A program made the translations under genes and the position numbers. The notes beneath the pieces were generated by a model. The model was not told the origin of the DNA, made no database searches, and saw only the letters and a program-made list of their open reading frames with translations. A stretch of DNA of 32,000 nucleotides from Candidatus Saccharimonadota bacterium (GTDB lineage Bacteria > Patescibacteriota > Gracilibacteria > Absconditabacterales > Absconditicoccaceae), in the NCBI GenBank assembly GCA_030429145.1, contig JAUIDC010000001.1:750001-782000 (forward strand). Direction: 5' to 3'. Shown here piece by piece: positions 1-32,000 of this stretch (the stretch's first letter is position 1; every line of letters begins with the position of its first letter).

Positions 1-288
1 TTTATAGGGGGTTTCTTCAAGTGTTGTGAGCGCTTCTATGAGTTGTGCTTTCCTGATGAGACCTCTATTTCCGTTGAGTTTCCCAACCAATCATGCTTTG
101 ATATGATTGTTGAAGTCTATCTCTTTGAGACGATTGAAATCAGCTATCGTTTCTGCCTCATGACCATGGTGACGTTGAAAAGCGTGTTCATCGATTCACT
201 TTGCTTTAAGCATTCCTCTTTTCTCATAGGTAAAAACGCTAATGATTATATAAAATCATTGCTTCATGTCAATCTTTCAAAAGAACAT
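1..288 (-). CDS. Hypothetical protein, N-terminal part; the gene continues past the left window edge
   Basis: The code-25 frame is open from candidate ATGs at 288, 267 or 213 to position 1. It contains 2-3 in-frame TGA depending on the start. The translation is hydrophilic and protein-like (..MLKAKGIDEHAFQRHHGHEAETIADFNRLKEIDFNNHIKAGLVGKLNGNRGLIRKAQLIEALTTLEETPYK). The opposite-strand track ORF 43..363 is Cys/Phe-rich and less plausible. Confidence 0.35.
245..272 (-). promoter_or_regulatory. Sigma70-like promoter, TTGACA-N16-TATAAT
   Basis: On the minus strand, TTGACA lies at 272..267 and TATAAT at 250..245 with a 16-nt spacer. It is only meaningful if the downstream gene starts at ATG 213. 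Confidence 0.35.
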
Positions 289-447
289 GAAAAACACCAG
301 TTGATACCCTTAAGTTATCAAGAAAGTGGGCATTTTGGCACTTATTACATATTATATATATGAAGTCAACCATCTATGTAGTAAATAAGTATTTATGTAT
401 GATCTGTTTTGCGAATTTCTGAGAAATCTCTATTATATAATCATCAC

Positions 448-683
448 GTTGCCTAGGGAAAAGGTTGTCGCCTCTCCTTGGATGATATGGTCGAGGTATC
501 CCTCGTAAAACCAGTTATCACTCCTATGAAAGCATATGAGGATAACACTCTATGCTCTGGTTTGTTGAGGTTTTCTCCAAAATCAACTGGCTGACTGTAT
601 TTCTTTCATCCGTTTGATCTTGGCGAAAGCCACCTCGACGGATCAGGGTCGAGGTGGCGGTATCCGCTGCCTTTTTCTTTTTT
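448..683 (+). ncRNA. Candidate structured small RNA of unknown class
   Basis: A perfect TATAAT lies at 436..441. No convincing ORF exists on either strand, even with TGA=Gly. GC-rich hairpins stand out in AT-rich DNA: cgagg-tatc-cctcg at about 492..507 and an 11-bp stem gccacctcgac/gtcgaggtggc at 629..658. A small gcgg/ccgc hairpin and a T-run at 672..683 follow. I could not find RNase P, SRP, tmRNA or 6S signature motifs. Confidence 0.25.
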
Positions 684-712
684 GAAAAAAATCCCCGTTG
701 ATTAACGGGGAT
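684..712 (-). terminator. Intrinsic terminator of the 739..1668 gene
   Basis: Stem atccccgtt/aacggggat with loop gatt. On the minus strand it is followed by TTTTTT. Confidence 0.7.
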
Positions 713-738
713 TCGTATAATATTATTCTATTTTGTTG

Positions 739-1668
739 TTATGCAGGCGGATAGAGAAACTTGAGAAATAATTTATCAAACTTTTTAAGTTCATCATGTC
801 CTATTGCTTGCATGTGTTGATCTATACTGGTTCTGAAACTAGCACCTGCAAGTAATGCCCAAAGCACAAAAAGATTGCCTACTGGTAGTAATGATGGATA
901 TCCATATCTCATGGCTGTGGCCATTGGATTATATGCAGGTTTTTCACTACGTATAGTGATGGCTTCATCCATGACTATTTCCCATTCTTTTTTCTTTCGC
1001 CCTATAAACGGCGGATTATTGCTAATCTTTTTCCACATTGTTTCACATTCTGATACAGCATCCATGAGATTCTTATTGAGGTTACTCATGAAAGATTCTT
1101 TATGTGGAACGCGAAGATATTCTCGCCAAACAATATGCTGGCTTTGTTTCTCTTGGAAATGTGCATCGTTGAGAATTGAAAACGATGCCGTCAGAGCAGT
1201 TTCTTTATCCCATCTATCTTTGATGAGGAATGCCATTCTGTATGACTTAGTGCCTGGTAAGCAATCGTTAGCTATAAATAATAACTGTACCTGCTTGTCT
1301 TGCTGATAACTATCAGCAAGGCTGCTTCTGTCGTAAAATCCTTTGACTAATTTGTATCCGAGAGAATACATGAGTTTGGTCAAAAATGTCCTATCGGTAG
1401 TGATGAAACTCTCATTGTTTTCGTTGGTTAGCTCTCTTTTTTTGATGGTTTCCCAACTTGCAAAAAGATCATATAAATTTTGCAGATCGAGATCATCTTT
1501 ATCAAAGGTAGGAATATTTGCTACTTTGATGCCGGTGATACAAGCTGTCTTGATTTTACGGCGTGAAGTTGCCTTTCGATTTCTCATATCGGTGATAACA
1601 CCTTTTATACTACTTTGAATGATGCGATTGACCAGTGATTGGCCAATGAGATGTGTTCTGTAATTCAT
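739..1668 (-). CDS. Hypothetical protein, 309 aa, no family recognised
   Basis: Intact ORF with a TAA stop and no in-frame TGA. It has its own terminator. I recognise no motif. Confidence 0.6.
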   Translation of the reverse strand: MNYRTHLIGQSLVNRIIQSSIKGVITDMRNRKATSRRKIKTACITGIKVANIPTFDKDDLDLQNLYDLFASWETIKKRELTNENNESFITTDRTFLTKLMYSLGYKLVKGFYDRSSLADSYQQDKQVQLLFIANDCLPGTKSYRMAFLIKDRWDKETALTASFSILNDAHFQEKQSQHIVWREYLRVPHKESFMSNLNKNLMDAVSECETMWKKISNNPPFIGRKKKEWEIVMDEAITIRSEKPAYNPMATAMRYGYPSLLPVGNLFVLWALLAGASFRTSIDQHMQAIGHDELKKFDKLFLKFLYPPA

Positions 1669-1783
1669 GATATAGATACTTTTCTTTTGTTACGAATTTG
1701 TTTACGAGGAAAGTATACTTTCCCATGCGAGAAAATCAACCAAATCTCTTTTATTGTATAAGTCAACTTCCGAGGAGTTCGTC

Positions 1784-2800
1784 TCACTGGTAGAGTGCTA
1801 CGATTTGGCCTGAAGCTACCGCTCTTTGCGGCTGAGAAAATTCGATTTTCATGAGATGATTGTCAGTTGCACTGATGGTGCAATCTTGGTCAGGCTGACG
1901 GTAGCGTATCTTTGCTGCTGCCTGCAAGGGGAGAGGAGGAACTGGGCTGATCCGATGCCAGTCGGTGGCTATGAGGCTATTACGGTAGAGCTCTGCCTCG
2001 CTTTCAGTTCCGACAACCAATAGATTCTTCTCGATATCCTTTCTTATGACAAAAAGAGGCTCGCTATATGCCACTCAAAGCCCTTGTCTCTGTCAGATAG
2101 TGTAGCCTCGGGCTCATTGATGCGTGCCAAGCTTCTCTCCCTGTAGATTGACGATATTTCACTCTTTTGGCTCAATTTGAGACTGTAAGAACTCACGCAT
2201 CTCCACTTTTCCGATAAAACAGATTCCTTGGCTATCTTTGCGGTCGGCATTTGGTAGTCATGCTTCTTTTGCGATCTTTCTGATCTCTGATTTGAGCATT
2301 CAGCCCACAGGAAACATGCTGTGTGAAAGCTGCTCTTGGTTGAGACGAGCAAGAAAATAACTCTGATCTTTCTCAGGATCTATTCATTTCAATAAGTGAA
2401 AAACACCATTCTTTTCTTTTATGCGTGCATAATGTCCCGTTGCGATAGCATCAAATCCCAATGCTAAAGCTTCATCTAAAAACAATCTAAACTTTATATC
2501 ACTATTACATAATACATCTGGGTTGGGCGTCAAACCACTTTTATATCCATCAACAATGTATTGGACGATACGCTCCTCATATTCTTTTTGAAAATCAAAA
2601 GTATATAGCTTGATTCCTAGATGTTCTGCTACTTTCTTTGCCTCTTCCAGGTCGGCTTTTGTGGTACATTCAGGGCTATCGGTGATATAATTTATCATAA
2701 AACCTGCAGTGACCTCATAGCCTTGCTTCATTAAAAGGTAGGCAGCTACAGCACTATCTACTCATCCCGATAAACCAACTAATATTTTTTTCTTTTCCAT
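1784..2800 (-). CDS. mnmA: tRNA-specific 2-thiouridylase MnmA
   Basis: Track ORFs 2384..2731 and 1784..2074 share a frame with the ATG at 2800. The joined translation gives LSG[G][10 protein letters not shown] (PP-loop), [17 protein letters not shown] and YTI[G]QRQGL[G]. There are 8 in-frame TGA, all at Gly-type positions. Track ORF 2044..2352 is out of frame. Confidence 0.9.
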
Positions 2801-3136
2801 AAAATGTTATTCTTTAGGATAGAATAATGAAAAAATAACTATACGTAAGTAACAATCTGATACAAGCTCTATATGAGAAAACGTTGCCTTTACCAAATGT
2901 AACTAATTGTTTTTGTTGTATTCAATTGTGGAGACGGACTGAAATTTTGAGTTTTGGGATACCCTCTGTATATCCATTTACTTTCCCACAATCAAGAGAA
3001 ATCTCTTCGTAATCACTACTATGATTTGACATAAAAGAGTGGATATGTGTGATTGGTGATGAAAAAAGCCTCGTTTTGGGGAGGAAAATGTCCTGAAAGA
3101 GTAGTTTGTATCCTAGTTTATATGATATGTGATTTT

Positions 3137-3165
3137 TTGCCTTTTTTGAGGTTTTTGAGTATAAT
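3137..3165 (+). promoter_or_regulatory. Sigma70-like promoter, TTGCCT-N17-TATAAT, upstream of the pilB-like gene
   Basis: TTGCCT at 3137..3142, a 17-nt spacer, then TATAAT at 3160..3165. The ATG at 3209 lies about 44 nt downstream. Confidence 0.45.
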
Positions 3166-3208: not shown

Positions 3209-4786
3209 ATGGCAACACAGCTAACGAAGAAGATATTGGAAAAGGAGGACGTGAAGGCGCTTCAGCCGAATTTTACGTATGTGAAATATCTGCCACAAGA
3301 GATCTCTGCTAAGGCGGAAACAGTGGTATTTGACGGTGAAAAGAATCGTCTCCAGCTTCTCACGACCAATGCCAATACTCTTGCAGTGAAGTCTATTGTT
3401 GATCAACTTGCTACCAAAGGTTATAAGACAGAACTCTACTATACCGATCCAGATGCATTTCAGATCGCTATCGGTTGGTATGATACCATCGTAAAACAGG
3501 AAAAAACAGAAGCGGAAGAGAGACAACTACAGCAGAATGCTCTCGGTCAGTCTGCAGAAGAGATGCTTCAAAAGCTCTATGCGGAGAAACAGCAGATGGA
3601 CGATGGTAAGTTTCTTGGAGAGATCATCAGATTGACCTATCAGGCTGGTGCATCGGACCTTCATTTTCAGCCACAGCAAGACAAAGTGCTTATGCGTATG
3701 AGAAAGGACGGTATTATGAAAAATGTGCTTGAGTTTACACAGGCTGAGTTTAAGAAGTATGCACTGAAGGTGAAATTTATGTCTGGTGCAAAGATGAATA
3801 TCGACTATCTGCCGCAGGATGGACGTTTTGACTTCCCGGTAGATATCAACGGTAAGAAAAAAGAGATCGATGTGCGTGTGAGCTTTATGCCAGGACTCAG
3901 AGGAGAGGGGATAGTGATGAGATTTTTGGATGCAGATCAGGGTATTATGACCTTTACTGACCTTGGATTTGAGTCGCAGACTATTTCATTGATCAAAGAA
4001 CATTTGACGAAAAACTACGGTATGATCCTTATATCGGGTCCTACTGGATCGGGTAAAACGACGACTCTCTACTCGATGCTTCAGTATATGAATGATTCAT
4101 CAAAGAAGATCATCACTCTTGAGCAACCGGTAGAATTTGAAATTGAGGGGATAGAGCAGTCACAGATTAACCCGTTGAAGGGTTATACGTATGAGGAGGG
4201 ATTGAAGTCTGTACTCCGTCATGACCCAGATATTATCTTCGTGTGAGAAATCCGTACGAAAGAAACTGCTGAGATCGCTCTCAATGCGGCTATGACTGGT
4301 CACTTGGTACTTTCTACTATCCATACGAACTCTGCTGTCGAGGCTATCTCAAGACTCATGAATCTTGGTATCAAGCCATATCAACTTGCACCTGCTCTCA
4401 ATCTTGTGATCGGACAGAGACTCGTGAGAAAACTTCATACCTGTGCGACAAAGCGTGAAGCGACCTTGCCAGAGCAGCAAGAGATGAAAGATGTCGTGCA
4501 GACGATCAATCAGATAGATCCTACGCGCAAAGTATCATTTGATGGTAATGTGTGGGCAGCTGTCGGTTGTGATACGGACAGTCATGATGGATATCAGTGA
4601 CGTTTGGCCGTTACTGAAGCTCTTGATGTGAACAATGATATCAAAGAAATGATATTGAACAATAAGAATACCCTCGATATCTACGCTGAACTTCGTAGTA
4701 AAGGCTTCCTAACTATGAAAGAGGATGCATACATGAAGATGCTTGAGGGGAAGACTACCTTAGAAGAAATTAGGAGAGTGTTGTAA
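3209..4786 (+). CDS. pilB: Type IV pilus / type II secretion assembly ATPase (PilB/GspE family)
   Basis: Three same-frame track ORFs are joined across TGA at 4244..4246 (DPDIIFV[G]EIR) and 4598..4600 (GYQ[G]RLAVTE). The protein has Walker [22 protein letters not shown] and an N-terminal T2SSE_N-like region. Length 525 aa. Confidence 0.9.
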
Positions 4787-4814: not shown

Positions 4815-5867
4815 ATGACATATTTCAAATTTAAGGATAGAGTAGAGGACTTTATCGTAGAAGAGATGCTTGGAAAAGAGCCAGAATGAGAGTGAGATTT
4901 TCATTATATTTTTTTTGAAAAGAAGAATTTAGCGACATTTGATATTATCAATAAGATACAGTGGGAGTTTAGGTTAAATAGAAATATGATAGGTTTTGCT
5001 GGTTTGAAAGATAAGCAAGCGATTACTCGTCAGTGGATAACGCTCAGCAAGCGTGATGTACATAAGTACTGTGGTGGAATTAACAATCTTCTCGCTTTTA
5101 TGAGAAAACAGGTAAAGGTACTAAAGGCTACTTATGGTAAGAAACCGCTCAAATTAGGTAATAACAAAGGAAATAGATTTGAGATCATACTTCGTGCGGT
5201 CAAAGCTAATGAGATAGAGAAAAGAAAATCAATGATTGAGAATATTCTTTCGGATATTAGCAAAAAAGGTGTTCCCAATTACTTTGGTGAACAACGCTTT
5301 GGTCATAGAGGGAGAAACTGGCAAACAGGTGAAAAACTTGTGCTTGGAGAGATTAAATCACTCAGATGAGATAACAATACAATGGCTGAAAAGCGCTTTA
5401 AAGTACAGGCATTCTCAAGTTATGTATTCAATGTCTACCTTGATATGAGACAAAAAGCTGGTAAGCTATATTCTATACTTCCAGGTGATATTGTAGTACC
5501 AGAAGATGGTCGTTACAAGCATCGAACGGGAAAAGAACAAGAAAATACCGATAGATTGGCTGTGACGGGTCCTGTCGTTTGATATGACTTAAAACATGCG
5601 AAAGAGGAGGCGCTTATGCTTGAAAAAGCGACTTATCAAAAGCTTTCTCTGCCTGCTGATATTGAAAAGGGCTTCCAAAAATTCAATATTTATGGTATCC
5701 GTCGTGCTATATTGTTATATCCTGAACATCTTTCTCGATCACGACAACAGTGAAACAATCTTTCATTACAGTTTGATTTAACATCAGGTGGTTATGCATC
5801 GGTGGTTATTGACTACTTGGAGAATCAACTTACTCAGAAGAGAGGAGAGGGTGCTAATAAAAAATAA
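4815..5867 (+). CDS. truD: tRNA pseudouridine(13) synthase TruD
   Basis: Joined frame from ATG 4815 to TAA 5865..5867. Motifs are EPE[G]E[G]DFHY (the GxGxH region), GFAGLKDKQAITRQW and NYFGEQRFG. There are 5 in-frame TGA. Track ORF 5596..5781 is out of frame. Confidence 0.85.
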
Positions 5868-5925
5868 TTTCCCTATTATTTTCAGCTATAGCATGATCAC
5901 CTATATAAAAACTCAAAATATATAG

Positions 5926-5942
5926 TTATCAATTATTGATAA
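5926..5942. repeat. 17-nt perfect palindrome TTATCAAT-T-ATTGATAA
   Basis: Read directly from the sequence, 59 nt downstream of the truD stop in an AT-rich non-coding stretch. It is operator-like. Confidence 0.5.
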
Positions 5943-6132
5943 TGTCTATTGTGGAAAACTTAAAAGAGGAGTTAATGTCAAGCAGACACAAGTCGACACG
6001 CTAGATGTAGACACATGTATTGAGTTATGTTAGGAAGATCGTTTGGCATATACGCACAAAAAATATTGTTGCATGATAATATGTTAATCATTTTTTCTTT
6101 TTTAGAGAGGACTTTCGTGTTATATATCCTCT

Positions 6133-6444
6133 ATGTATGTATATCTGAAAAACAACATCTACCTTGCACAAGATATATTGTGTCATCCTGAATATGGCCC
6201 CAGAGTGGATCTCGTCTGAAAAAACATTATTTGTGCATTCATATTTTATATTTGCAAAATAATATTACTTCAAAAAAATATATCAACTGAATGTTTGTTT
6301 TCTCGATGGAGAATCCCTCCAAAATATAAAAATACTCTCCCCTGACGAAAAAAATGAAAAATAACGATGTGAAATCATGTGTTTTTATACTTCAAATGGA
6401 GGAATATGCCACTCAAGTCTCAAAATGAGCTGAAATGAAATTAG
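6133..6444 (+). CDS. Possible small protein of 103 aa, visible only under code 25
   Basis: 103 sense codons run without TAA or TAG in AT-rich DNA, with 5 TGA read as Gly. The composition is not clearly protein-like and no family is recognised. Confidence 0.2.
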
Positions 6445-6461
6445 GGTAGTTTGCACCTAGG

Positions 6462-6480
6462 AAAACGGGGTAGTCACTCC
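6462..6480 (+). repeat. Copy 1 of the hairpin motif AAAACGGGGTAGTCACTCC
   Basis: It matches copy 2 at 7113..7133 in the same orientation. The stem is GGGGT/ACTCC. Confidence 0.5.
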
Positions 6481-6481
6481 T

Positions 6482-7060
6482 CTATTTTGCAATAAATCTA
6501 TTTTCTAGTACACATTTTTCTGAACCATGTAAGAATGTTTCTGAAGATCTAAGAAATTTACATTCAATGGTGTAGAAATTTCATTTTATTATAGGTTCAT
6601 TTACTTGTACAATGAGAAAAACCATTTCTCCAGGAAAACATATTTTAGAATGTGTAATTTGATATTCACGGTCTAATACATTGTACATATTTGCAAGAAA
6701 TATTTCATATGACATGAGTTGATTGATAGAACCCGTTTTGATGGCTAATCAAATTGCTGTGTATAAAGCTTGAAATCTAGCTAATGTCATTTGGACACCA
6801 GATACATGATCTAGTCATTTTTTGCTTAAATTGTATTTGGGGAATATAAATCATAGTTTGAAGATATTGTCTTCTAAGCGCTCAATATTCTTGAGAAATA
6901 TATTGTCTTCATTGTAGAAATGTCACAGTATTTCATATACTTCTGGCGGTGTTTCTATAGTTACTTTTGTGTCTAAGCTTATCTTTTTCAATCACTCAGA
7001 AATCTTTGAGATTTCCTCATCCGATGGTTTTTCATTGTTTGGATTGATAATATTATTCAT
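6482..7060 (-). CDS. Hypothetical protein, 192 aa, visible only under code 25
   Basis: ATG at 7060 to TAG at 6482..6484: 193 codons with no TAA or TAG before the terminal TAG, and 6 in-frame TGA. It is absent from the standard-code track. The translation is protein-like (..GLDHVSGVQMTLARFQALYTAIGLAIKTGSINQLMSYEIFLANMYNVLDREYQITHSKICFPGEMVFLIVQVNEP..). Confidence 0.55.
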
Positions 7061-7112
7061 GATTCGAATTGTAGTGAAAAATAATAATTTGTCTATATCT
7101 TTTCTTATATAC

Positions 7113-7133
7113 AAAACGGAGTAGTGTCACTCC
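7113..7133 (+). repeat. Copy 2 of the hairpin motif AAAACGGAGTAGTGTCACTCC
   Basis: Perfect 5-bp stem GGAGT/ACTCC. It lies upstream of the 6482..7060 gene, while copy 1 lies just past that gene's stop codon. Confidence 0.5.
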
Positions 7134-7196
7134 CCTTCGGGCTTGATTTTTGGGAAATCCTGTTTATAAATGTACTACTAACATAGTTGATTTAGT

Positions 7197-7234
7197 GCCT
7201 CCCGCCTGTTTTCAGGTTATGGGGGGCTTTTTTT
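7197..7234 (+). terminator. Intrinsic-terminator-like hairpin T1
   Basis: GCCTCCC-G-CCTG-TTTT-CAGG-TTAT-GGGGGGC followed by T7. No plus-strand ORF precedes it. Confidence 0.5.
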
Positions 7235-7300
7235 ATTGGTTTTTCTATAGATGTTGTTATCTTCAATAAAGTTATACTTCGCCTGGGCAACCCCCGCCCT

Positions 7301-7334
7301 ACTCCCCCTTGTTTCCAAGGCTTGGGAGTTTTTT
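7301..7334 (+). terminator. Intrinsic-terminator-like hairpin T2
   Basis: ACTCCC-CCTTG-TTTC-CAAGG-CTT-GGGAGT followed by TTTTTT. It is preceded by the GC-rich segment cgcctgggcaacccccgccct. Confidence 0.5.
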
Positions 7335-7355
7335 ATTATTCTGTTTAAACAAATA

Positions 7356-7383
7356 TTGACTTTTATTAATATAAATCTAGAAT
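7356..7383 (+). promoter_or_regulatory. Sigma70-like promoter, TTGACT-N16-TAGAAT
   Basis: TTGACT at 7356..7361, a 16-nt spacer, then TAGAAT at 7378..7383. It lies upstream of ORF 7409..7759. Confidence 0.4.
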
Positions 7384-7408
7384 TGCTGAACATCAAAACC
7401 AAGTATCT

Positions 7409-7759
7409 ATGCTGAACAAAAGAAGTTCCCTTATTGTGGGGTTTGCATGTTTGTTGGATACAATGGACATGATGTTTACCTCTAAACAGTACAAGTATGT
7501 ACCTTACAGCTCTTGTTACAATCCAGCTTTGGAGTGTATCCCATGGATAGTGCAACTCTATCTAATGAGAAGACGAGCAAATGTTGTCGCTACGAGATTA
7601 ATAGTAATTGCTGGTGAAAACATTTTAAGTCTGTTTTATGTACATGTCTGGACAATATATCTGATCTCCCCGTATATTGGGGCGATAGCAAGAGAACCTC
7701 AACAAACACGAGGTCCTCCTCTAGTGGCTGTTTACAAAGGTCCAAATAAAGTATTTTAA
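7409..7759 (+). CDS. Possible small protein, 116 aa; it could instead be an approximately 400-nt RNA
   Basis: The ORF is bracketed by the promoter at 7356..7383 and the bidirectional terminator at 7757..7795. The composition is unusual (rich in Y, C and W) and no family is recognised. Confidence 0.3.
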   Translation: MLNKRSSLIVGFACLLDTMDMMFTSKQYKYVPYSSCYNPALECIPWIVQLYLMRRRANVVATRLIVIAGENILSLFYVHVWTIYLISPYIGAIAREPQQTRGPPLVAVYKGPNKVF

Positions 7760-7795
7760 AAAAGCTGATGCTTATCGTGGCATCGGCTTTCTTTG
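7757..7795. terminator. Bidirectional intrinsic terminator
   Basis: Stem agctgatgc/gcatcggct with one G-T pair, flanked by an A-run and a T-run. It sits between the convergent units 7409..7759 (+) and 7826..8296 (-). Confidence 0.65.
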
Positions 7796-7825
7796 TTGTT
7801 GCAAAAACGAAATGTCTACTTCTGT

Positions 7826-8296
7826 CTATTGATTCACTTTTTCTGGTAGAGTGATCTCGCGTGGATATTCCCATGCTTTTCCATCGATCATCCTTATTCG
7901 TTTCGGTGTGATCTTGAAGAATACTCTGAAGTCTACATTTTGAAGTGCTTCGTGGTTTTCATCAGAAAATTTTCACTCAAACTTTTGATAGTATTTCTTG
8001 ATCTCGTCCATGTCCTCTTCTATATTGAGTTCTTTGCATACTCCTCTCATCTGTAGTCACTTTACTACTTTGTCGTCATAAGCGTGAGGATCATAGATAC
8101 AGACAGCAACTTCGGCGTCTTTACTGAGATTAGTCACATGTTGTCTCCTGCGGTTTGACATAAAGTAGAGATTGAACTCTTCATCTGAAGAGTAATGAAG
8201 ATTGCAAGCATAGGGGTGCTTTCCGTCTGTTGTAGACAAAGCTAAGATTTCATTCTGTTCAAGAAATGTAAGGATGTCTGCTTTGATAGCGCTCAT
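7826..8296 (-). CDS. Pyridoxamine 5'-phosphate oxidase-like FMN-binding (split-barrel) family protein
   Basis: Track ORF 8057..8296 is extended through TGA 8057..8059 and one further TGA to TAG 7826..7828, giving 156 aa. The general pattern fits small PNPOx-like proteins (LALSTTDGKHPYACNLHY.., ..FFKITPKRIRMIDG). The family assignment is from memory. Confidence 0.6.
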
Positions 8297-8420
8297 GATA
8301 AAAAGACAAGAGTAAAATTACTCATGCAATATATCTGTTTTTGGTAGAAATGCAACGTTTTAGTAGGAGTATTTCATAGGAGAAATTGCTTGTTTGAATA
8401 GTTTATAGTAGCGAGCTTGT

Positions 8421-8630
8421 ATGAAATCCTTGATCTCACTTCTTGAGACAATAGTAAGCTTCGTTCTACTCTTTGCTATGACGATGCTTTTACATCACTT
8501 GTACCACTGTCTGAGAAAGAGAGAGCCATCTCTTATGATCAGCTCTTTCTTGTTCTTGAAAAAAACAATAAGTTTCATTTGTATGATGTTTTACAAAATA
8601 AAACTTTCACCAATTGTCTCTCAACACTAA
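8421..8630 (+). CDS. Possible small membrane protein, 69 aa
   Basis: Hydrophobic N-terminus MKSLISLLETIVSFVLLFAM that is only vaguely prepilin-like, with no G-1 and Glu off register. TAA stop. Confidence 0.2.
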   Translation: MKSLISLLETIVSFVLLFAMTMLLHHLYHCLRKREPSLMISSFLFLKKTISFICMMFYKIKLSPIVSQH

Positions 8631-8722
8631 TCCTGAAATTGTATCTTACAAGAGCAAGTATTCATTTTGATTTGGCATTCTCTACAAACTAGTAAACAGA
8701 TATATTGACACTCTGATAATAC

Positions 8723-8751
8723 AAAAAACAGCCTATCGAAGACTGTTTTTG
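8723..8751. terminator. Bidirectional intrinsic terminator
   Basis: aaaaacag..ctgttttt hairpin flanked by A and T runs, downstream of the minus-strand operon that ends at 8772. Confidence 0.6.
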
Positions 8752-8771
8752 TCAAGAAAATACGTAACTTA

Positions 8772-9377
8772 TTATCCTCTAAAGAAAATGAATACCACTA
8801 CTGCTACGATGACGATGAACATGATAGTCATCCATACAATGTTCTTGTTTCTTTCACCCTTGTAGCCAGTGTATACTTCTTTGAGCTTAGACTCTAGTCT
8901 TTCCTTCTCTATAAGAAGCTTTTCTTTCTCTTCTGTATAGTCTGGTAGAGCAATCATGCTTTTCATTCTTCATTCTAACTCTCCAAGTTTCTGCTGTAGC
9001 ATGAAGATAACCTTATTTTTGTCCTCAAGAGCCTTATCTTTTTCTGTAAGGAGTCCAAAAAACTGATCAAGTCTTGAGTTGAGGTCTCCTCCTCCGCTGT
9101 TGCCTCCTCTACTTGAGCTAGAGGTGTTTTTTGCAAGTGAGTTATTATTGCTGCTGTTGTTTGATGATGAGATTACTTCGGTATATTCAGCGTCCTGACG
9201 AAGTAAGTTAAAGTCGTCTTGCATGGTGTCTACTTCGTCTCTAGATAAAATAACTTTGTTTGCTACTTTTTTATATGAAAGCTTTCCTGCTTTCACATAT
9301 CTATCAATAGTTCTTGTTGAAACCCCTAGATGTTTTGCTGCTGCTTCACGCGACATGTTATAGTTTAGCTCTGCCAT
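8772..9377 (-). CDS. Membrane-anchored HTH protein: N-terminal excisionase/MerR-type HTH, S/N-rich linker, coiled coil, C-terminal TM helix
   Basis: Track ORFs 8970..9377 and 8772..8966 share a frame and are separated only by TGA 8970..8972 (..LGELE[G]RMKSM..). The first true stop is TAA 8772..8774. The HTH is AAKHLGVSTRTIDRYVKAGKL and the TM segment is IVWMTIMFIVIVAVVVFIFF. Confidence 0.6.
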
Positions 9378-9382: not shown

Positions 9383-9760
9383 TTAGAAAATTTTCTTAAG
9401 AATTAAAGTAAGAAGCGTAATGATGATCGACAAGATAAATGTCTGTTCTATGCTTCCAAGCGATACTGCGATACCTAGGTCAAGCTGCGACACAACGTAT
9501 TGGAATAGGTACAAGATGATCATATTGATGATGATGCTTGCTATCCCCAATGTCATGAGATTGATAGGTGTTGCGAGGAACTGTAAGATCTTTCTAATCA
9601 CCCAGTACATCAACCAAAAAATTGCTCACAGAGCAAGCAATAATGGGGTCGCTGACCATGATAGCGGTTCTATAGTAAGTCATCCTTGCGGGATGTATAG
9701 TGCTACAATAACCAGTACCAGTGTATTGATGATAATAGAGAGAAGTAGTGATCCTAGCAT
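9383..9760 (-). CDS. Phage holin family IV-like (DUF360-type) small membrane protein
   Basis: Track ORF 9383..9613 begins at an internal TTG. The frame extends upstream through 2 TGA to ATG 9760, giving 125 aa with several predicted TM segments. The family call is from memory of DUF360-like proteins. Confidence 0.5.
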
Positions 9761-9863
9761 CGTCCGGACATGTCGAGACAGATATAAATATCATTTACAA
9801 AATTGTCTATTACGTAACCTCACTTATAGAAATCTTCTGTCTCGTTGCAAGAGGAAATGCCTA

Positions 9864-10277
9864 TTATTGTCTAGACGTCGCTTTTTGTCATGCAATAATA
9901 CAGATAACGACAATGAGAACCAGTGTAAGTCAGAATATTGGCTGTTGGTAGTACTCCCATAGGCCTGCCCAGGTATTAGTTTCCATGTATTGTGGGATTC
10001 GTGCTATGATGTCGAGACAAAATCCGACAATAATGAAATATATACCGAGATATAGCCCCTGTAGCGCTCCTCTAGCTACTTTTTTCGAACGGAAGTATAA
10101 TGCTGCCATAAATCGAGTAATGATGACAGCTGCCGCAGCACTTACTACTCGTACTCGCATAGGCGGGTTTGCCATGTCGATACTCTCAAATCCAGCTACA
10201 AGACCAATAATGATCCCTATAGCAAGAGTGATAATGTAGGTGAGTAGTGCAAAACCGATAGCTCTTAATGGTTTCAT
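9864..10277 (-). CDS. Hypothetical integral membrane protein
   Basis: The start is likely MKPLRAIGF at 10277, just after the trpS stop. TGA 9930..9932 is read through, adding a C-terminal TM segment (..PIF[G]LTLVLIVVICIIA[G]QKATSRQ). TAA at 9864..9866. Length 137 aa. Confidence 0.55.
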
Positions 10278-10317
10278 GATATGTCTATTATGTATAAAGC
10301 AATGTTTATAGGTAGAA

Positions 10318-11289
10318 TCATACTTTTTGGAAGACTTCATCTACCTTCTTTTGCGCAATAACTGCTGCTTTTGGTGTCGACTTTTTCAATATACTGCTAA
10401 TGTCCTCATCAGTCAACTCGTTATATCTCTCTTGGATTGGTTTGAGAAATGCTACTATCCTTTCGTGTAGTTCCTCTTTGAGTGATCCATATCCACGTCC
10501 TCCATTTTCAAAATCAGCTCTTATCTTTTTGTCTTCTTCCTCATTGAGAAAGAGTTTCATGATCTGATAGAGTTGAGATTCATCGGGATTCTTTGGATCA
10601 TCGATCCCCTTCTCGTCTGTTGGGATCACTTTTACCTTTTTGAGTACTGTCTTTTCATCGTCCATAAGACCAATGTAGTTATTATATGATTTAGACATTT
10701 TGCGTCAGTCAATACCTGGTACGACTGCGACAGTCTCCTCTATCTTTGGCTCTGGTAGTTTAAATGTCTCACCAAATGTCTTGTTGAACTTCTCTGCTAT
10801 GTCACGTGCGTATTCCACATGCTGTTTCTGGTCTTTTCCGACGGGCACGACATCAGCATCATACAGCAATATGTCTGCAGCCATCAGGATAGGATAGGTG
10901 AAGACACCGACAGATATTTCACCTGCTTTTCCCTTGTTGATAGAGTCTTTATATGCATGCATGCGTTCAGCGGTTCCCATGTTAGTCAAACACTGCAATA
11001 CCCATGTGAGCTGTGCATGTGCAGGGATCATAGCCTGATTATAAATGAGTGTTTTTTCAGGATCTAGTCCACATGCAATGTACAGTTTTAGTGCATTGAT
11101 GCTGTATTGTCTTACCTTGTCTGCATCGTGGAGTGCTGTCAAAGAGTGCATATTTGCGAGAAAGAGAAACACATCATACTCTCCGGAGTTTTGATACTGT
11201 ATCATTTGTGGTATTTGCATCCCGAAATAGTTTCCGATATGCATGTGTTCACCTGTTGGTTTCAATCCTGTCAATAATCTTTTTGTCAT
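10318..11289 (-). CDS. trpS: Tryptophan--tRNA ligase
   Basis: Track ORFs 10705..11289 and 10318..10698 are joined by TGA 10705..10707, giving VPGID[G]RKMSKSYNN (KMSKS). The HIGH-type motif GEHMHIGNY is present. Length 323 aa. Confidence 0.9.
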
Positions 11290-21839: not shown

Positions 21840-21958
21840 TGACTAGCGATTTTTCTTATCTCAAATAAAAATTTGCCAACAAAAAATCACGGCGATTTGT
21901 CAATGTATATTCGGATTAATGGTGATTGCAAGGGGAAAGATACAATTTTTACAAGCAT

Positions 21959-21986
21959 TTGACATATTTCTACTTATTAGTATCAT
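21959..21986 (+). promoter_or_regulatory. Sigma70-like promoter, TTGACA-N16-TATCAT
   Basis: TTGACA at 21959..21964 and TATCAT at 21981..21986, 28 nt upstream of ATG 22015. Confidence 0.4.
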
Positions 21987-22014
21987 CTGCCTATAAACAA
22001 AAAAGACATCTATT

Positions 22015-22572
22015 ATGCATACAAGAAAAAAAGTACTATTAGTGGCATCTTCAGCCAAGCCAGTGACTCATCCATCCATTTTGTCTGCTGTTTCCTCTAC
22101 TGTTCAATATTTTTTGGAGAAAGAATATGTTGTTATCAGTACAAATGGTCTACACTTTGGTGATATTATCAAGGGTGTAGCCACAGAGTATGCTGATAAG
22201 AACAATATTCCTCTCGATCAACTATATGAAGAATATACTTTGGGAGAGAGTATGAAACATCTACCAATCATGGCGCTCTTTATTGAAGGGGCAGATCAAG
22301 AGAGAGAATATTGGTCTCTATTAAAAGAATTGAGTATTCCCTGTATTGGATGGCCTGGCCTTGGAGGTCTTGGTTTAGAAGTGTTCGATGATACCCTTGC
22401 TATTGTAGATCAAATGGATGATGAAGAGCTCATAATGTGCTATCATACCTTAGGACATCTTATTCAGCCGGAATGGGTGGAGGCTGTCTATCCACCAGAC
22501 TCTGGTAAAAAAATCTATAATTTCGTTCAGTATCATGAACAACTACGTAAGCAGTTACAATCGATTCAGTAA
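22015..22572 (+). CDS. Hypothetical protein, 185 aa, possibly a Rossmann-like fold
   Basis: Intact ORF with a TAA stop and no TGA. It begins KKVLLVASSAKP. The family is not recognised. Confidence 0.55.
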   Translation: MHTRKKVLLVASSAKPVTHPSILSAVSSTVQYFLEKEYVVISTNGLHFGDIIKGVATEYADKNNIPLDQLYEEYTLGESMKHLPIMALFIEGADQEREYWSLLKELSIPCIGWPGLGGLGLEVFDDTLAIVDQMDDEELIMCYHTLGHLIQPEWVEAVYPPDSGKKIYNFVQYHEQLRKQLQSIQ

Positions 22573-24274: not shown

Positions 24275-25366
24275 TTATATGTCAATTTCAAACTCTTCTT
24301 TCCTAACTTCTTGGAGATCTATTTCTGACATTATTTCTTCTTTTAATAGGGCTGATTCTTCGGGATTATAGATGTCTAAGAATCTTATAAGTTTATCTAC
24401 TTCTAAATTTTTATAGTGTGGTCTAACCAGATTAATTAATGTTTCGGGTACCCAATCACTATAGTCTTTTATCCAAATGATTTGGGAATTACTTATTGCA
24501 GCATCGACAATTCTATTTACTTGATCTATAGAAAATTCACCATACTTCTCTAGTTTTATTAATGTCTTCCTTGTTCTTGCGAATGAATAACTTTCTTCTA
24601 AGTCTTGAATGTGCTTTTCTTTGAAATATTCTTCATTTAATGTTATGTCTGGGAACGTCCCAGCAAAAAAATCATTGAGTGCGTTGTAAAAAACAATTTT
24701 TCCTTTTTTAGGTAAGAAAGAGTATGATTCGCTTTCTTTCTCTAAAAAGTTCATGAGCTTTTTTTCATCTAAAGGGCAGGAGAAGTCTCCATCAATTGAA
24801 ACTAAATGTATGTTAGAATCTGTATCATTTTTGGCATATTCAAGTAGTGATTCCCAAATTATGGCATCTCAATATGAATTGTTTTTGCCTGGTGGATTAC
24901 CTAGATCAAATCTTTTTTTTGCTTTTTCTCGCAACTCTTCAGTTAATGGTATTTGTGTTGCTTTAGAGAATATCTTTTTGAGCAATATATCTGCTTTCAA
25001 CTTTTCCTGGGCGGCATCAGTGGAGACTTTTTCTATTAATTGATTTTTTAGGTGAGAGAATTCTCTAAATGTCTCATGTAACATTGCTTTTTCCTCATAA
25101 GAATCTGAAATTCTGGGTAATTTAAGATCTATATGCTGTTCTTTTAGTTTTTTTATAGCATCTTTGATTTTATTTTCTCTGTTTCTATAAAACTCATTAA
25201 TTATTTGTTCTGGTAAGAGAATGGTTAATTGATCAGTGTCAATTAATCAAAGTATATTTTCTAGTTTTTCTAAATCATTATCGCTAAAATGATAAAAACT
25301 TAAGTATACATTAGTGTCAATGCATAAGACTACTTTAGTATTTTTTTCTTCAGTTTTTTTGCTCAT
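24275..25366 (-). CDS. PIN-like domain protein (DUF4935-type) with an uncharacterised C-terminal half
   Basis: Track ORFs 24869..25084 and 24275..24754 share a frame with ATG 25366. The codon count between anchors was checked. There are 2 TGA (ENIL[G]LID, NNSY[G]DAIIW). Motifs are VVLCIDTNVY, GNPPGK..SY[G]DAIIWESLL and IHLVSIDGDF. Length 363 aa. The locus is more AT-rich than its flanks. Confidence 0.55.
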
Positions 25367-25383
25367 TGCCTTGATTCTTTTAT

Positions 25384-25407
25384 AAAAACCCCACATCTTT
25401 GCGGGGT
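25384..25407 (-). terminator. Intrinsic terminator after trxA
   Basis: The minus strand reads accccgcaaagatgtggggt followed by TTTTTA. Confidence 0.55.
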
Positions 25408-27191: not shown

Positions 27192-27620
27192 TTAATAGAA
27201 TTGTAGAGGGATAATTGCTTGAGAAGTGCGAATACGTTGAGGGTGTAATCGCTCTTGTTTCCAAGGGATTTCTCTTGCGTTAATAATCACGCAGTGTATG
27301 TCCCAGAGCTTTTTCCCCTGTTTGTTGATCAAATAGTCTAAGTGGTCTTTTTGTGCATCGGATAAGAATACATACAGTGTGTCCGTAGAACACACAGAGT
27401 CGCAATCTCGTAGTTGGTAGGTCTTGAGTACAAGTGGATTTTCGATGGTTTTCGAAATAATAAACGGGAATATCTTTGTCGAATCCGTAATATCTCCTTG
27501 TAGCTCTACCATCTCTATGGGCTTGCCTCCTCGTCCTGTGGGTTGGCAACTGCTCATAGCAAGCATGCTGCATAGTAGTATCACTATGGCACACAATAGC
27601 ATGATTCGTCTTTTTTGCAT
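27192..27620 (-). CDS. Putative lipoprotein, 142 aa
   Basis: Signal peptide MQKRRIMLLCAIVILLCSMLAMSSC with a lipobox-like MSSC. TAA stop. Confidence 0.55.
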   Translation of the reverse strand: MQKRRIMLLCAIVILLCSMLAMSSCQPTGRGGKPIEMVELQGDITDSTKIFPFIISKTIENPLVLKTYQLRDCDSVCSTDTLYVFLSDAQKDHLDYLINKQGKKLWDIHCVIINAREIPWKQERLHPQRIRTSQAIIPLQFY

Positions 27621-27679
27621 GACTTTTCTTTTTGTTTAGGAAAGGATATATGTTTTAGTGGCAAAAGTCAATCTATAAG

Positions 27680-27711
27680 AAAAGCCCTGACTGATATTCA
27701 GTCAAGGCTTT
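27680..27711 (-). terminator. Intrinsic terminator
   Basis: Stem agccctgactga/tcagtcaaggct with one mismatch. A T-rich tail follows on the minus strand, downstream of 27739..27945. Confidence 0.55.
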
Positions 27712-27738
27712 ATGGTCTACCTGTTACAATAATGCTTT

Positions 27739-27945
27739 TTATGCAGCTATTTGCACACCGTCGTTACAGCTCCATACTATCGTATGTGTCCCTATTTGCT
27801 TTTTAAATGCGGGGACATATTCGCAAGGAGTATAGTCTATGCCTAGTATGCCTTGTTGAGCCATAAATTCATTGAGTGCCGCTTGTTGTTCCTCTTTACT
27901 GGGAATCAGTCTTTTTTCGGATTTGTGTTTTCTTTTGTATTTCAT
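27739..27945 (-). CDS. Hypothetical small protein, 68 aa
   Basis: ATG to TAA ORF with its own terminator. No family recognised. Confidence 0.4.
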   Translation of the reverse strand: MKYKRKHKSEKRLIPSKEEQQAALNEFMAQQGILGIDYTPCEYVPAFKKQIGTHTIVWSCNDGVQIAA

Positions 27946-27967
27946 GTGTAGTTCTTTTACTGAGTTG

Positions 27968-28359
27968 TTAGTGAAAAGTAATAGGATATTGAGTAGTAAT
28001 ACCTACCCAGTGTGGCCTTGCAGGATCTATTGTACCTTGTTTTGTACGAGATTTGAAGGCACATACTATTTCTCGGTTGAGTTGGTAGTTATTCTTTTGT
28101 AGGAGGTTGAGTAGCCTTGCTGCACCGGTTTCATCAAGCTTTATAATGGCTGTGTCTGTCTCCGCCTCTTCTGGCCGGAGGGCGCGAGTTTGAATAAGTG
28201 CATAGGCAATGCCACAGCCAAACTCTTGTTGATCAGAGTGACAGGAGTCTAATCCTATGAACACGCCGTTTATTTTTTCGTTATTAACGGATACGTGTTT
28301 TTGACTGTCGTCATTGCAGCTACTACAAGCAATGTACAAAAGAGTGATAATACTTGTTA
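27968..28359 (-). pseudogene. 3' portion of a lipoprotein gene interrupted by the transposon insertion
   Basis: The frame is open from the transposon junction (..LTSIITLLYIACSSCNDD..) but has no plausible start codon. The missing ATG AGA TAC T lies on the far side of the element at 31931..31940. Confidence 0.75.
28352..28359 (+). repeat. Target-site duplication, left copy (ACTTGTTA)
   Basis: Identical 8-mer directly abutting the outer end of each terminal inverted repeat. The other copy is at 31923..31930. Confidence 0.8.
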
Positions 28360-28406: not shown

Positions 28407-28892
28407 CTATATATTAAATTTCTTTAAAACCTTATCAAACTCTTCAGAGTTATCTTGAGTACAAATCTGAGACAAGTAATCTGTAGTTTGCTTTCTGGCA
28501 ATATTATTTTTGATAATGAAATTATGTAGCTCTATATATTTTTGATGAATCAGTTTTCCTACACAAATGCACTGTCCTGTAGATTCTAATGTATGCAATT
28601 CATCGAGTTCCATATGGTCTCGTGGATGATTATTTCATGAAAAATAAATATAATTATCTTGAAACACTACTAGGGCATTATCAATATCACTCGGCGATAT
28701 AAGAAAAAAATTCTTATGATAACCTTTTCATGTGGTTGGCACTAAAAAACTCACATAAATTCTATGAGATATAGATGATTCTTCAAAAATTTTATATACT
28801 ATCTTATACTTATCTTTAAATCTATCTGTTCACGCTTCTTGTGAATTATGATGTCTGAAAATTTCTTTAATTTTTATTTCACGTTTTGGCAT
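28407..28892 (-). CDS. Unknown 161-aa protein; candidate toxin partner of the Panacea-domain gene
   Basis: ATG 28892 lies 2 nt after the TAA of the upstream gene (..GAA TAA AC ATG..). There are 3 in-frame TGA. Track ORF 28407..28613 is its C-terminal third. No family recognised. Confidence 0.55.
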
Positions 28893-28894
28893 GT

Positions 28895-29440
28895 TTATTC
28901 TGCATCAAAATTTAATTCTTCTCTGAAGTGTTCAGTTCAACCCAAAGTTGCTTGAAAAGCCTCCATCGGTTTTGTTCCATAAGCAATCTTAGTTAATCCG
29001 GTTCAACGAAATCCAGATAAATTTGTTAAATATTCATCTATAATTTGAATTTCATCATCTGTTAATTCTGTAGGTTTTATTTCTTCACCTTGTTCCGATA
29101 ACTGATAATAAATGATTTCGTCACCAGTTGAACCAGTAATTATATCATGAGATACTATTCCCTCTTGTTCTAAATTCTCTATATCTTCTATTATTTTTCT
29201 ATCATAAGGTCAATAGTAATATCTTATGTACTTATACTCAGATAGTCTCTGCTTATCATTGTTTTTATAGTACATCAATTCTATTAGGTATAAGAGCTTA
29301 ACAATTTCTGTAATATTACACTTTACTCTATTCTTGAGTATATGCATTATAAGCTCTTTAGACTTATTCATTAAGTAATAAGGAAATGATTTAAATCAGT
29401 AATTTGATACATACTTGGCTGTCGTAATGCAATAGAACAT
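28895..29440 (-). CDS. Panacea / SocA-like (DUF4065) antitoxin-domain protein
   Basis: Absent from the track because of 3-4 TGA. The hand translation gives ..ITEIVKLLYLIELMYYKNNDKQRLSEYKYIRYY[G]PYDRKIIEDIENLEQEGIV.., matching the KL.KLLY...Y.YGP core of the family (from memory). An alternative start is ATG 29371. TAA at 28895..28897. Confidence 0.55.
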
Positions 29441-30163: not shown

Positions 30164-30997
30164 CTATACCTTATTTAGTAATAGCCCAAATAAATTATCT
30201 TCTTTTCTGTTATTATATCTCCAAACAAATTCATCTACATAAGCCTGCATCCATTGTTTGGAGACTCGATGATATATTCATCTAATACCTCTTTTGAGTA
30301 AGCTCCAAAATCACTCAAGAGTATTTGTGTATACATCTCCTACAGCTCGCTCCCATCTGCTATGACAGACAGTATCATGCTGATAGCAAAGGGATAGATT
30401 TCTATATCACCTTCGTTCATCTGAACATATCCTACTATGCTTTTCTACGTTTGCAAAAATAAAGGTTGTAAGGAACTCTTCTGTAGCGCTTTTCCCTATA
30501 GTTGCCTTTATCTTTCCTGTATCGCGATTAAGAATTCAAACAACCATAGTTTTATTTCTTTGCCAACCATTATTCCATCATCATTTAACTCTTCCTCCCA
30601 CATAAGTCTCATCGACTTCGCTAATTCATTTGAACATTGGGAGATCTTCCTTCATGAGTTTACGTATTTGTTGCATCATTCTCCAAGCCGTCTTATAGGT
30701 GACTCTTATCTGTCTCGCTAGTTGATTTGAAGACAATCACTTCTTACTATTTGCTATGAAATACATAGCAAGAAACCATTTATGCAATGGTGTAGAAGAC
30801 CTATAGAAGATGGTTCCACATTTCAATGTTTGCTGATGATTACAGCTGAATTTTCTACACTGATACTTTCTACTGTGAGATAATCTATACATAGTTGTTC
30901 CACATTTTTGACATATTACTTTTGATTTTATTTTTGCAAGATGTTCATAACATTCTTCATCGGTTCTAAATTTCTCGATGAACTCTATTAAATTCAT
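30164..30997 (-). CDS. IS1595-family DDE transposase with an N-terminal zinc ribbon
   Basis: Track ORF 30737..31015 carries the Zn ribbon CQKCG..C..C. It extends through 8 TGA to TAG 30164..30166. Motifs are ISEVDETYVGG, ICSDERR[G]Y, HSRW, YTNTLE[G]FWSLLKRGIR[G]IYH and YVDEFVWRYNNR. Length 277 aa. Confidence 0.85.
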
Positions 30998-31143
30998 TCT
31001 GCAATTATTAAACAATAAAAGTCAATAATTGTAATGCAAAACAATGGCTATAGCAAGCCATTATCATACACGTGTACGTGTATTTTTTAATTTTGTAAAG
31101 ATGCTTTTTTGCATCTATAAGAATAAAAATATATAATGTTAGT

Positions 31144-31488
31144 ATGAAAGAAGTTAGGATAAGAGACCCATTATATGGCATTTCTATTCAGGTATTCAGC
31201 GATATCTCTTTTGCAGATTGGAGAGAATCTTTTTGAATTTGAAAAGGGAAATCCGAAGTAAGTGTTGGGTGATTTACCTGGTATAATAATGAAACTTGAG
31301 GTGCACTCATATGGCTCAATAGAAAAGCATGACCAGAAATATTAATACACGAACTGTGGCATGCAATACATGGGGCATTAAAAGATAGATGATTCACTCC
31401 TAATAGCATTGCTGGGGAAGAGACGTATGCTTATCTTTTTCAATATTTTTATAGAAAGATGACTCAGAAAGGTTTATTTCCCAAATAA
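31144..31488 (+). CDS. Small HExxH-motif protein, 114 aa; putative Zn-metallopeptidase-like (ImmA/IrrE- or SprT-like?)
   Basis: Absent from the track. There are 6 TGA in 114 codons. The motif is LIHELWHAIH followed by GEETYAYLF. TAA at 31486..31488. Confidence 0.5.
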
Positions 31489-31512
31489 AAAAACACCGTT
31501 GTAGACGGTGTT
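31487..31512 (-). terminator. Intrinsic terminator for the minus-strand small gene
   Basis: Stem aacaccgt/acggtgtt with loop tgtag. A T-run follows only on the minus strand. Confidence 0.6.
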
Positions 31513-31541
31513 CAAGATCAATATTAGCAAAAGAAAAGATA

Positions 31542-31688
31542 TTATTTTCTCTTGCGATTGGTGCCTGACTTTTTTTCTCCATCAGAGGTGTAAGGATTAC
31601 TTCTTGCGTGTCCTTTCACCTTGGTACCGTCAGCTTTAGTATAACCAGGTATTCTGTTATACTTTTGACCTTTGTCTGTTTTAGCCAT
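31542..31688 (-). CDS. Small basic protein, 48 aa
   Basis: MAKTDKGQKYNRIPGYTKADGTKVKGHARSNPYTSDGEKKSGTNRKRK. The longer start in the track adds implausible sequence. TAA stop followed by a terminator. Confidence 0.35.
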   Translation of the reverse strand: MAKTDKGQKYNRIPGYTKADGTKVKGHARSNPYTSDGEKKSGTNRKRK

Positions 31689-31895
31689 AAGGTATGTGGT
31701 TAAGAAATAAAAGAGTGTTTTTTTGTGGGTATGTTCTTTGCGAACATGTTGTGTAATCTGCATAATAAGCTTATTGCTGATTACACCCTGACTATATAGA
31801 ACGTACGTTTCTTTTTCAAGAGATTTTCTATATATTGTGTTGCCGAACGTTTTTAGACACAATATATGTGTTGACAAAAAACATATACTTATACC

Positions 31896-31922
31896 TTATA
31901 CTTCTTTTAAGGGAGATTTATC
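31896..31922 (+). repeat. Right terminal inverted repeat (TTATACTTCTTTTAAGGGAGATTTATC)
   Basis: Matches the reverse complement of 28360..28386 at 25 of 27 positions. Confidence 0.8.
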
Positions 31923-31930
31923 ACTTGTTA
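31923..31930 (+). repeat. Target-site duplication, right copy (ACTTGTTA)
   Basis: Identical to 28352..28359. Confidence 0.8.
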
Positions 31931-31940
31931 AGTATCTCAT
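31923..31940 (-). pseudogene. 5' stub (ATG AGA TAC TTA ACA AGT) of the interrupted lipoprotein gene
   Basis: The minus strand reads atgagatacTTAACAAGT. When joined to 28351 downward it gives MRYLTSIITLLYIACSSC.., a complete lipoprotein signal peptide in the same frame. Confidence 0.7.
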
Positions 31941-32000
31941 ATTCGTGGTTTTTGTTTATAAAAATATTATAGTTCTCTATGAGTGTAAGTCAACCCTTGT

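Follow-up and report, generated by a model that had tools for sequence, protein, structure and literature searches.

What genetic code is at work in a stretch of DNA where the essential genes groEL, pheT, trpS, ligA and rpoD are all interrupted by TGA? The stretch analysed here, called the window throughout, is 32,000 bases long with a G+C content (GC) of 38%. It corresponds, on the opposite strand, to positions 35461..67460 of the 94,580-bp Logan contig ERR3428547_4705, of which 25584..76722 formed the readable part (51 kb; pieces L001, L002 and L013). It was suggested in a sequence-only reading that the window is written in NCBI table 25, where UGA codes for glycine, UAA and UAG are the only stops and the remaining codons are standard. 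Glycine at UGA and termination by TAA and TAG alone are borne out here, whereas the standard meaning of the remaining codons fails, as CGA and CGG appear to be read as tryptophan. Judging from sequence comparison, it is very likely that the window belongs to an uncultured Absconditabacteria (SR1)-related bacterium with a double reassignment, UGA to glycine and CGA/CGG to tryptophan.

The sense reading of TGA is apparent before any homologue is considered. A curated set of 32 genes (8,940 codons), from which antisense artefacts were removed, carries 84 in-frame TGA codons that make up 16% of the glycine codons and are distributed over 22 genes, in agreement with the earlier count of at least 20 genes broken by TGA and rejoining in frame. 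Of these genes, 27 terminate with TAA, five with TAG and none with TGA, exactly as anticipated, and neither TAA nor TAG was ever seen in frame in this set. When the codes were compared, as the sequence-only reading had proposed, coverage by non-overlapping open reading frames (ORFs) of at least 100 amino acids (aa) rose from 0.60 in the standard code to 0.86 with TGA as sense, a gain beyond chance; by the same measure, control read-through of TAG or TAA gave 0.64 and 0.70, respectively. The genes that carry the argument are listed below.

1..32000: the whole window, in which UGA would be read as Gly and CGA/CGG as Trp, with UAA and UAG as stops
1751..2800, minus strand: mnmA, with 10 in-frame TGA
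3209..4786, plus strand: gene for a pilB/gspE-type ATPase, TGA at 4244..4246 and 4598..4600
4815..5867, plus strand: truD, TGA at 4887 and 4893, CGA at 5736..5738 and 5742..5744
9864..10340, minus strand: gene for a membrane protein, with four CGA/CGG; sequence read directly
10306..11289, minus strand: trpS, TGA at 10705..10707 and 10318
11312..12277, minus strand: M19 dipeptidase gene, with seven TGA and three CGA
12370..12957, plus strand: rsmG, TGA at 12562..12564 and CGG at 12775..12777
13011..14648, minus strand: groEL, TGA at 14295..14297 and 13032..13034
15106..17343, minus strand: ligA, TGA at 16603, 16513 and 16207, CGA at 16330..16332 and 15721
17412..19346, minus strand: rpoD, TGA at 17499 read through, ending at TAA
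19371..21839, minus strand: pheT, TGA at 19512 and CGA at 20394..20396

All TGA positions cited earlier for MnmA, PilB, TruD, RsmG, TrpS and GroEL prove to be in frame, within ORFs delimited by TAA or TAG. End-to-end Pfam matches run across the TGAs for MnmA (tRNA_Me_trans, matched over 1-202 of 202 by the rejoined ORF), T2SSE, TruD, TrpRS, M19, GidB and Cpn60, and equally for the domains of LigA (among them DNA_ligase_aden), for sigma-70 regions 1.2 to 4 and for the five PheT domains. Gene calls made with table 11 on the Logan contig split PheT into 308 and 327 aa, GroEL into 117 and 409, LigA into 246 and 326, and PilB into 345 and 102. Nothing is called at 6482..7060, nor for the Panacea gene, the DUF2628 gene or the HExxH ORF, and for rsmG the listed standard-code ORFs include none of at least 80 aa on its strand. 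This agrees with the earlier claim that several genes of the window are invisible to a standard-code gene caller.

For the identity of the inserted residue, TGA was masked as X in alignments to solved structures and nine standard-code genomes. About 23 of the 33 alignable sites lie opposite Gly and none opposite Trp, which agrees with the original proposal that Gly fits these positions and Trp does not. In MnmA, nine of ten TGAs are opposite Gly in Streptococcus pneumoniae and Escherichia coli, including that of the PP-loop SG[G]VDS (2762..2764; brackets mark the residue encoded by the codon in question). Both PilB sites, V[G]EIR and GY.[G]R, correspond to Gly in three of three solved homologues, and TruD TGAs 4887 and 4893 to the glycines of E. 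coli GEGE, with three other TruD TGAs falling in poorly aligned stretches. TrpS 10705..10707 is opposite Gly in three of four solved TrpRS (Thr in E. coli) and TrpS 10318 is opposite Gly. The TGA of the RsmG S-adenosylmethionine loop matches Gly in four of four homologues, the other RsmG TGAs being mixed. GroEL 14295..14297 is opposite Gly (KRGI) and 13032..13034 lies within the Gly-Met tail, and the dipeptidase TGA at 11762 is likewise opposite Gly. LigA and PheT had been named as further cases without coordinates. Against standard-code LigA, TGA 16513 is opposite Gly in 8/8 sequences, 16207 in 9/9 and 16603 in 4/9; PheT 19512 is opposite Gly in both homologues. At LigA columns conserved in at least seven of the nine standard-code bacteria, TGA codons pooled from four genomes of the lineage fall on Gly in 31 of 34 cases.

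Codon-by-codon comparison with two relatives gives evidence that is independent of the choice of translation table. One is Patescibacteria group bacterium Gw_Eff_bin_18 (contig JAGOPC010000016, L003), which is syntenic with the window and has a LigA 74% identical; the other is GCA_039809345.1 (L014). TGA codons of the window are TGA in seven, GGN (any glycine codon of the standard code) in 13 and GCC in one position of Gw_Eff_bin_18, where rpoD TGA 17499 is Ala, and TGA codons of that genome lie opposite window GGN in 15 of 17 cases. In GCA_039809345.1 the window TGAs appear as TGA (8) or GGN (3) at 11 of 14 sites, and 57 window GGN codons are TGA there. The dipeptidase gene combines both reassignments, its TGA sites being TGA or GGN in Gw_Eff_bin_18 and its CGA sites TGG or CGA.

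These comparisons bear on two other readings of the TGAs. The raw presence of in-frame TGA is, taken by itself, what would be expected if they were true stops, arising from pseudogenes, from errors of sequencing or assembly, from programmed read-through or from selenocysteine. This is next to impossible, as all 84 lie in frame in 22 genes and mostly at Gly positions, are kept as TGA or GGN in two independent assemblies, affect the essential genes groEL, pheT, trpS, ligA and rpoD alike and never terminate one of the genes, while TAA and TAG never occur in frame. The other is code 4, in which UGA is Trp and which is used by Mycoplasma and some insect endosymbionts. The window resembles the Mycoplasma/Spiroplasma code in its low GC and its use of UGA as sense, and public translations of relatives do carry W at the column of LigA TGA 16513 in 81 of 119 matches. 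That W is a gene-calling artefact of table 4: the same columns are Gly in all standard-code homologues (8/8 and 9/9, and E. coli). Table 4 is a frequent fallback of gene callers on genomes of this type, and it restores ORF length. In the window, table 4 would put Trp at invariant Gly positions, no TGA site is opposite Trp in any solved structure, and in the relatives the exchange partner of TGA is GGN, never TGG. We consider code 4 extremely improbable. It is thus strongly supported by these alignments that UGA would be read as Gly, and not as Trp, selenocysteine or stop, throughout the window.

The second reassignment concerns CGA and CGG (together CGR). The 32 genes contain 39 CGA, 5 CGG and 74 TGG codons, so that CGA and CGG together would make up 37% of the tryptophan codons. 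Thirteen window CGR codons could be compared in Gw_Eff_bin_18, where six are TGG, seven are CGR and none is an Arg codon; for CGA alone the counterparts are TGG (5), CGA (5) and CGG (1), again with no Arg codon. In the opposite direction, window TGG is TGG in 12, CGG in nine and CGA in five positions. CGT, CGC, AGA and AGG exchange in the relatives only with one another or with Lys codons. Comparison with GCA_039809345.1 resolves the codons into blocks that do not mix, namely {TGA, GGN}, {CGR, TGG} and {CGY, AGR}, where CGY stands for CGT and CGC and AGR for AGA and AGG. An exchange screen over all 64 codons flagged TGA, CGA and CGG only. A marginal AGA-to-Lys signal in that screen was rejected as ordinary conservative Arg/Lys substitution; a false positive of the same type has been described (PMC8629427).

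Standard-code homologues point in the same direction. Trp stands opposite CGR at 7 of 16 alignable sites, and Arg at none, save possibly in one Staphylococcus PheT. The LigA CGA at 16330..16332 coincides with the conserved Trp in PR[W]A.AYKF, which is Trp in E. coli and in eight of nine other bacteria, and that at 15721 is opposite Trp in five, Tyr in three and His in one of nine standard-code bacteria. The two CGAs of TruD are opposite both tryptophans of E. coli LSWNW, and PheT 20394..20396 is opposite the Trp of E. coli PSWR. MnmA CGG 1952..1954 corresponds to a Trp of the E. coli protein and to a Phe in that of S. pneumoniae, and the RsmG CGG to Trp in E. coli and Mycobacterium tuberculosis. 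In the conserved LigA columns defined above, with the same four genomes pooled, CGA/CGG fall on W or F in six of seven cases and never on Arg, and CGY/AGR on Arg in 51 of 66. The four CGR codons of the membrane protein at 9864..10340 fall within hydrophobic segments predicted to span the membrane (PPM[W]V[W]VV, IIT[W]FMAAL), where Trp would fit and Arg would not. CGU, CGC, AGA and AGG, on the same codon comparisons, remain arginine.

No tRNA gene was found in the window by ARAGORN, and no Rfam family at gathering thresholds. Two tRNAs lie on the source contig outside the window, approximately 4.6-5.5 kb beyond position 1, labelled Arg(gcg) and Arg(tcg) by ARAGORN and separated by about 740 bases.

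L002 16264..16338, minus strand: tRNA-Arg(GCG), called by ARAGORN, A20 present
L002 17075..17146, minus strand: tRNA(UCG), called by ARAGORN, some 5.5 kb outside the window on the side of position 1

If the acceptor stem is taken as the standard 7 bp, tRNA(UCG) has A1:U72, discriminator G73 and the D-loop AGUGGUA, which places U at position 20 instead of the Arg determinant A20. A1:U72, G73 and U20 are shared by tRNA-Trp(CCA) from Ca. Absconditicoccus praedator (L015), to which tRNA(UCG) is 57% identical, compared to 40% for the neighbouring tRNA-Arg(GCG). G73 and the lack of A20 are the features by which a Trp-accepting tRNA was recognised by Shulgina and Eddy, with A/G1:U72 as supportive (PMC8629427). 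No tRNA(CCG) was seen in the readable contig, 25584..76722. On these identity elements, tRNA(UCG) probably decodes the reassigned CGA and CGG.

It remains to be considered whether plain table 25, with UGA as Gly and CGA/CGG kept as Arg, would suffice. Its UGA part is fully supported and its stops are those of the window, and some CGA codons look natural as Arg, such as that at 27606 in the signal-peptide n-region MQKR[CGA]IMLL of the gene at 27192..27620. Against this, CGA and CGG swap freely with TGG and never with CGY/AGR in two relatives, occupy Trp positions of LigA, TruD, MnmA, PheT and RsmG, and are matched on the contig by a tRNA(UCG) that lacks A20. Plain table 25 is thus a very unlikely description of the window; it mends the fragmentation of the ORFs and mistranslates about 0.5% of the residues.

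A decoding scheme may be proposed in which UGA would be read as Gly, presumably by a tRNA-Gly(UCA), and release factor 2 would have been lost, leaving UAA and UAG as sole terminators. CGA and CGG would be read as Trp by the UCG-anticodon tRNA with Trp identity elements, putatively charged by the TrpRS encoded at 10306..11289. CGU and CGC would be read as Arg by the tRNA-Arg with anticodon GCG, and AGA and AGG would stay Arg. No PCRF or RF-1 domain match is on record for the genes called in the 51 kb, although these calls are fragmented.

A code of this kind has been described before, though it is seldom applied. UGA was assigned to Gly in SR1/Absconditabacteria and Gracilibacteria, giving table 25 (Campbell et al., 2013; Rinke et al., 2013; both as cited in PMC8629427). 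In Absconditabacteria, reassignment of CGA and CGG to Trp besides UGA to Gly was predicted computationally (Shulgina and Eddy, eLife 2021; PMC8629427), together with a tRNA-Arg(GCG) for CGY, a tRNA(UCG) that links CGA to CGG, low GC and a preponderance of AGA. The change of CGA/CGG to Trp is treated as established for Absconditabacterales in a 2026 Nucleic Acids Research paper (PMC13092985). The window shares the meanings of UGA, CGA and CGG, the decoding of CGU/CGC through tRNA-Arg(GCG), a tRNA(UCG) with G73 and without A20 on its contig, low GC and AGA as the main Arg codon, and would fit every tested feature of the Absconditabacteria variant. It differs in two respects. CGA usage is about 44 per 10,000 codons when all codons of the 32 genes are counted, compared to less than 37 per 10,000, measured over aligned Pfam domains, in all species of PMC8629427; and the lineage is divergent, with LigA at most 56% identical to all but one metagenome-assembled genome. 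An Arg-to-Trp sense reassignment in a low-GC lineage is also found in Anaerococcus and the RFN20/Onthovivens Bacilli (PMC8629427, PMC13092985), where it involves CGG only and tRNA(UCG) is missing; in the window CGA is the main codon and tRNA(UCG) is present. The double reassignment is already known in kind, and the window is a divergent new case of it and not new biology.

Several points weigh against this reading. The CGG evidence comes from few codons (five to six in the window), several CGR sites are opposite variable non-aromatic residues (A, K, S, H, D) in distant homologues, and about half of the CGR sites are individually informative. A search for tRNA-Gly(UCA) was negative for the window and the 51 kb of contig, which is uninformative at about 5% of the genome seen, and likewise for the loci of Gw_Eff_bin_18, GCA_039809345.1 and Ca. 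Absconditicoccus praedator. Lastly, LigA is only 43-47% identical to that of named Absconditabacterales, which leaves placement in the order, as opposed to a sister lineage, tentative.

Among named organisms, those with the closest LigA are Ca. Absconditabacterales, Absconditicoccaceae, Absconditicoccus praedator, Vampirococcus lugosii and SR1, all at that level of identity; other matches reach 56% and Gw_Eff_bin_18 74%. The first suggestion of an SR1- or Gracilibacteria-type origin is thereby strongly supported, and the CGA/CGG variant narrows it towards Absconditabacteria. Could the bearer of this code be one of the Gracilibacteria, or come from a separate sister lineage, instead of Absconditabacteria proper? 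The modest LigA identity would allow it, a Peribacteria match scores alike (47% over 79% of the query), and a reading of CGG as Trp has been predicted in some Gracilibacteria (PMC8629427). This is nevertheless unlikely, since joint reassignment of CGA and CGG has been reported for Absconditabacteria/Absconditabacterales only and most of the named top LigA matches are Absconditabacterales or SR1. We favour a bacterium related to Absconditabacteria. A tentative extension, on which we would not insist, is that the window, Gw_Eff_bin_18 and GCA_039809345.1 together form a deep branch beside the described Absconditabacterales in which the capture of CGA is unusually advanced.

The remaining genes of the window with in-frame TGA or with domains of note are the following.

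6482..7060, minus strand: hypothetical gene with six TGA, uncalled in the standard code
7826..8296, minus strand: gene for a PNPOx-like protein, with two TGA and one CGA
9383..9760, minus strand: gene for a Phage_holin_4_2-family membrane protein, TGA in frame
28407..28892, minus strand: 161-aa gene without family match, with three TGA and one CGA, directly downstream of the Panacea gene
28895..29440, minus strand: Panacea-domain (SocA/Panacea) gene, with four TGA
30164..30997, minus strand: gene for an IS1595/ISXO2-type transposase, with eight TGA and three CGA, including SDE[W]R[G]Y
31144..31488, plus strand: HExxH ORF (HELWH) with six TGA, uncalled in code 11

Some early ORFs were recognised on inspection as spurious antisense calls and replaced, namely 21843..22433, 7217..8060 and 31008..31409 on the minus strand and 9420..9962 and 9985..10239 on the plus strand; the real genes opposite the last two are on the minus strand at 9383..10340. 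In three gaps (5868..6481, 7061..7825 and 8318..8771) no frame contains a convincing ORF with either code, and there is no Rfam match. These non-coding gaps are unusually long for a small genome, and GC around them is low (31% over 6001..7000 and 36% over 7001..9000), most of the window being higher.

The Panacea gene and its 161-aa neighbour are both AT-rich (28-29% GC) and may form an antitoxin-toxin pair; table 11 gives a single 68-aa fragment over 28407..29440. The TGA and CGA content of the transposase implies an insertion sequence in the variant code of its host, one that could not be correctly expressed in a standard-code cell. Three small genes on the minus strand (27192..27620, 27739..27945 and 27968..28339) are all free of TGA, and two of them have lipoprotein-like N-termini containing Cys (…AMSSC, …IACSSCNDD). 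Codon usage in the first and third is the most atypical of the window, and a 106-aa protein identical to part of the product of 27192..27620 is encoded on a 936,577-bp NCBI contig. The region 27192..28339 may be a recently acquired island. A 373-aa PIN_12/PIN_8-domain protein is encoded at 24275..25396 (minus strand, 30% GC) adjoining a thioredoxin gene, and may be a nuclease of defence or toxin type.

RpoD carries an N-terminal extension of about 190 aa (18780..19346) consisting almost wholly of repeats of Lys, Ala, Thr and Pro and resembling histone H1; it precedes regions 1.2 to 4 and aligns in Gw_Eff_bin_18 too. In that genome there is no groES-groEL match between ligA and rsmG (10849..15547 of L003), where the pair is present in the window and in GCA_039809345.1. 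The missing match is ascribed to a local rearrangement or an assembly gap.

The choice of table has direct consequences for annotation. With CGA and CGG read as Trp, the standard table and table 25 both mistranslate genes of the window. The standard code loses about a quarter of the coding sequence and splits essential genes, table 4 turns every UGA-encoded Gly into Trp, and table 25 would still turn about 44 Trp of the 32 genes into Arg, including the invariant Trp of LigA. Public databases illustrate this. Among the top 120 LigA matches taken from a 5.8-billion-protein database, sequences of relatives have Arg at the invariant Trp in 82 of 119 cases (CGR translated under table 11, 25 or 4), and mostly Trp at UGA-encoded Gly columns, reflecting the use of table 4. 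This database was discarded as evidence on UGA: the argument would be circular, since the top 120 are nearly all of the same lineage and translated with tables 4 or 25. Public collections already hold many mistranslated proteins of this lineage.

The window provides independent support, at the level of genes and tRNAs, for a change of CGA/CGG to Trp that we found described only as a computational prediction. If the deep branch proposed above were real, its CGA usage would exceed that of any genome in the 2021 screen, with CGA and CGG supplying 37% of the Trp codons. Its tRNA-Trp(UCG), together with the single TrpRS gene nearby, would then be a natural system in which to study how TrpRS accepts an anticodon other than CCA.

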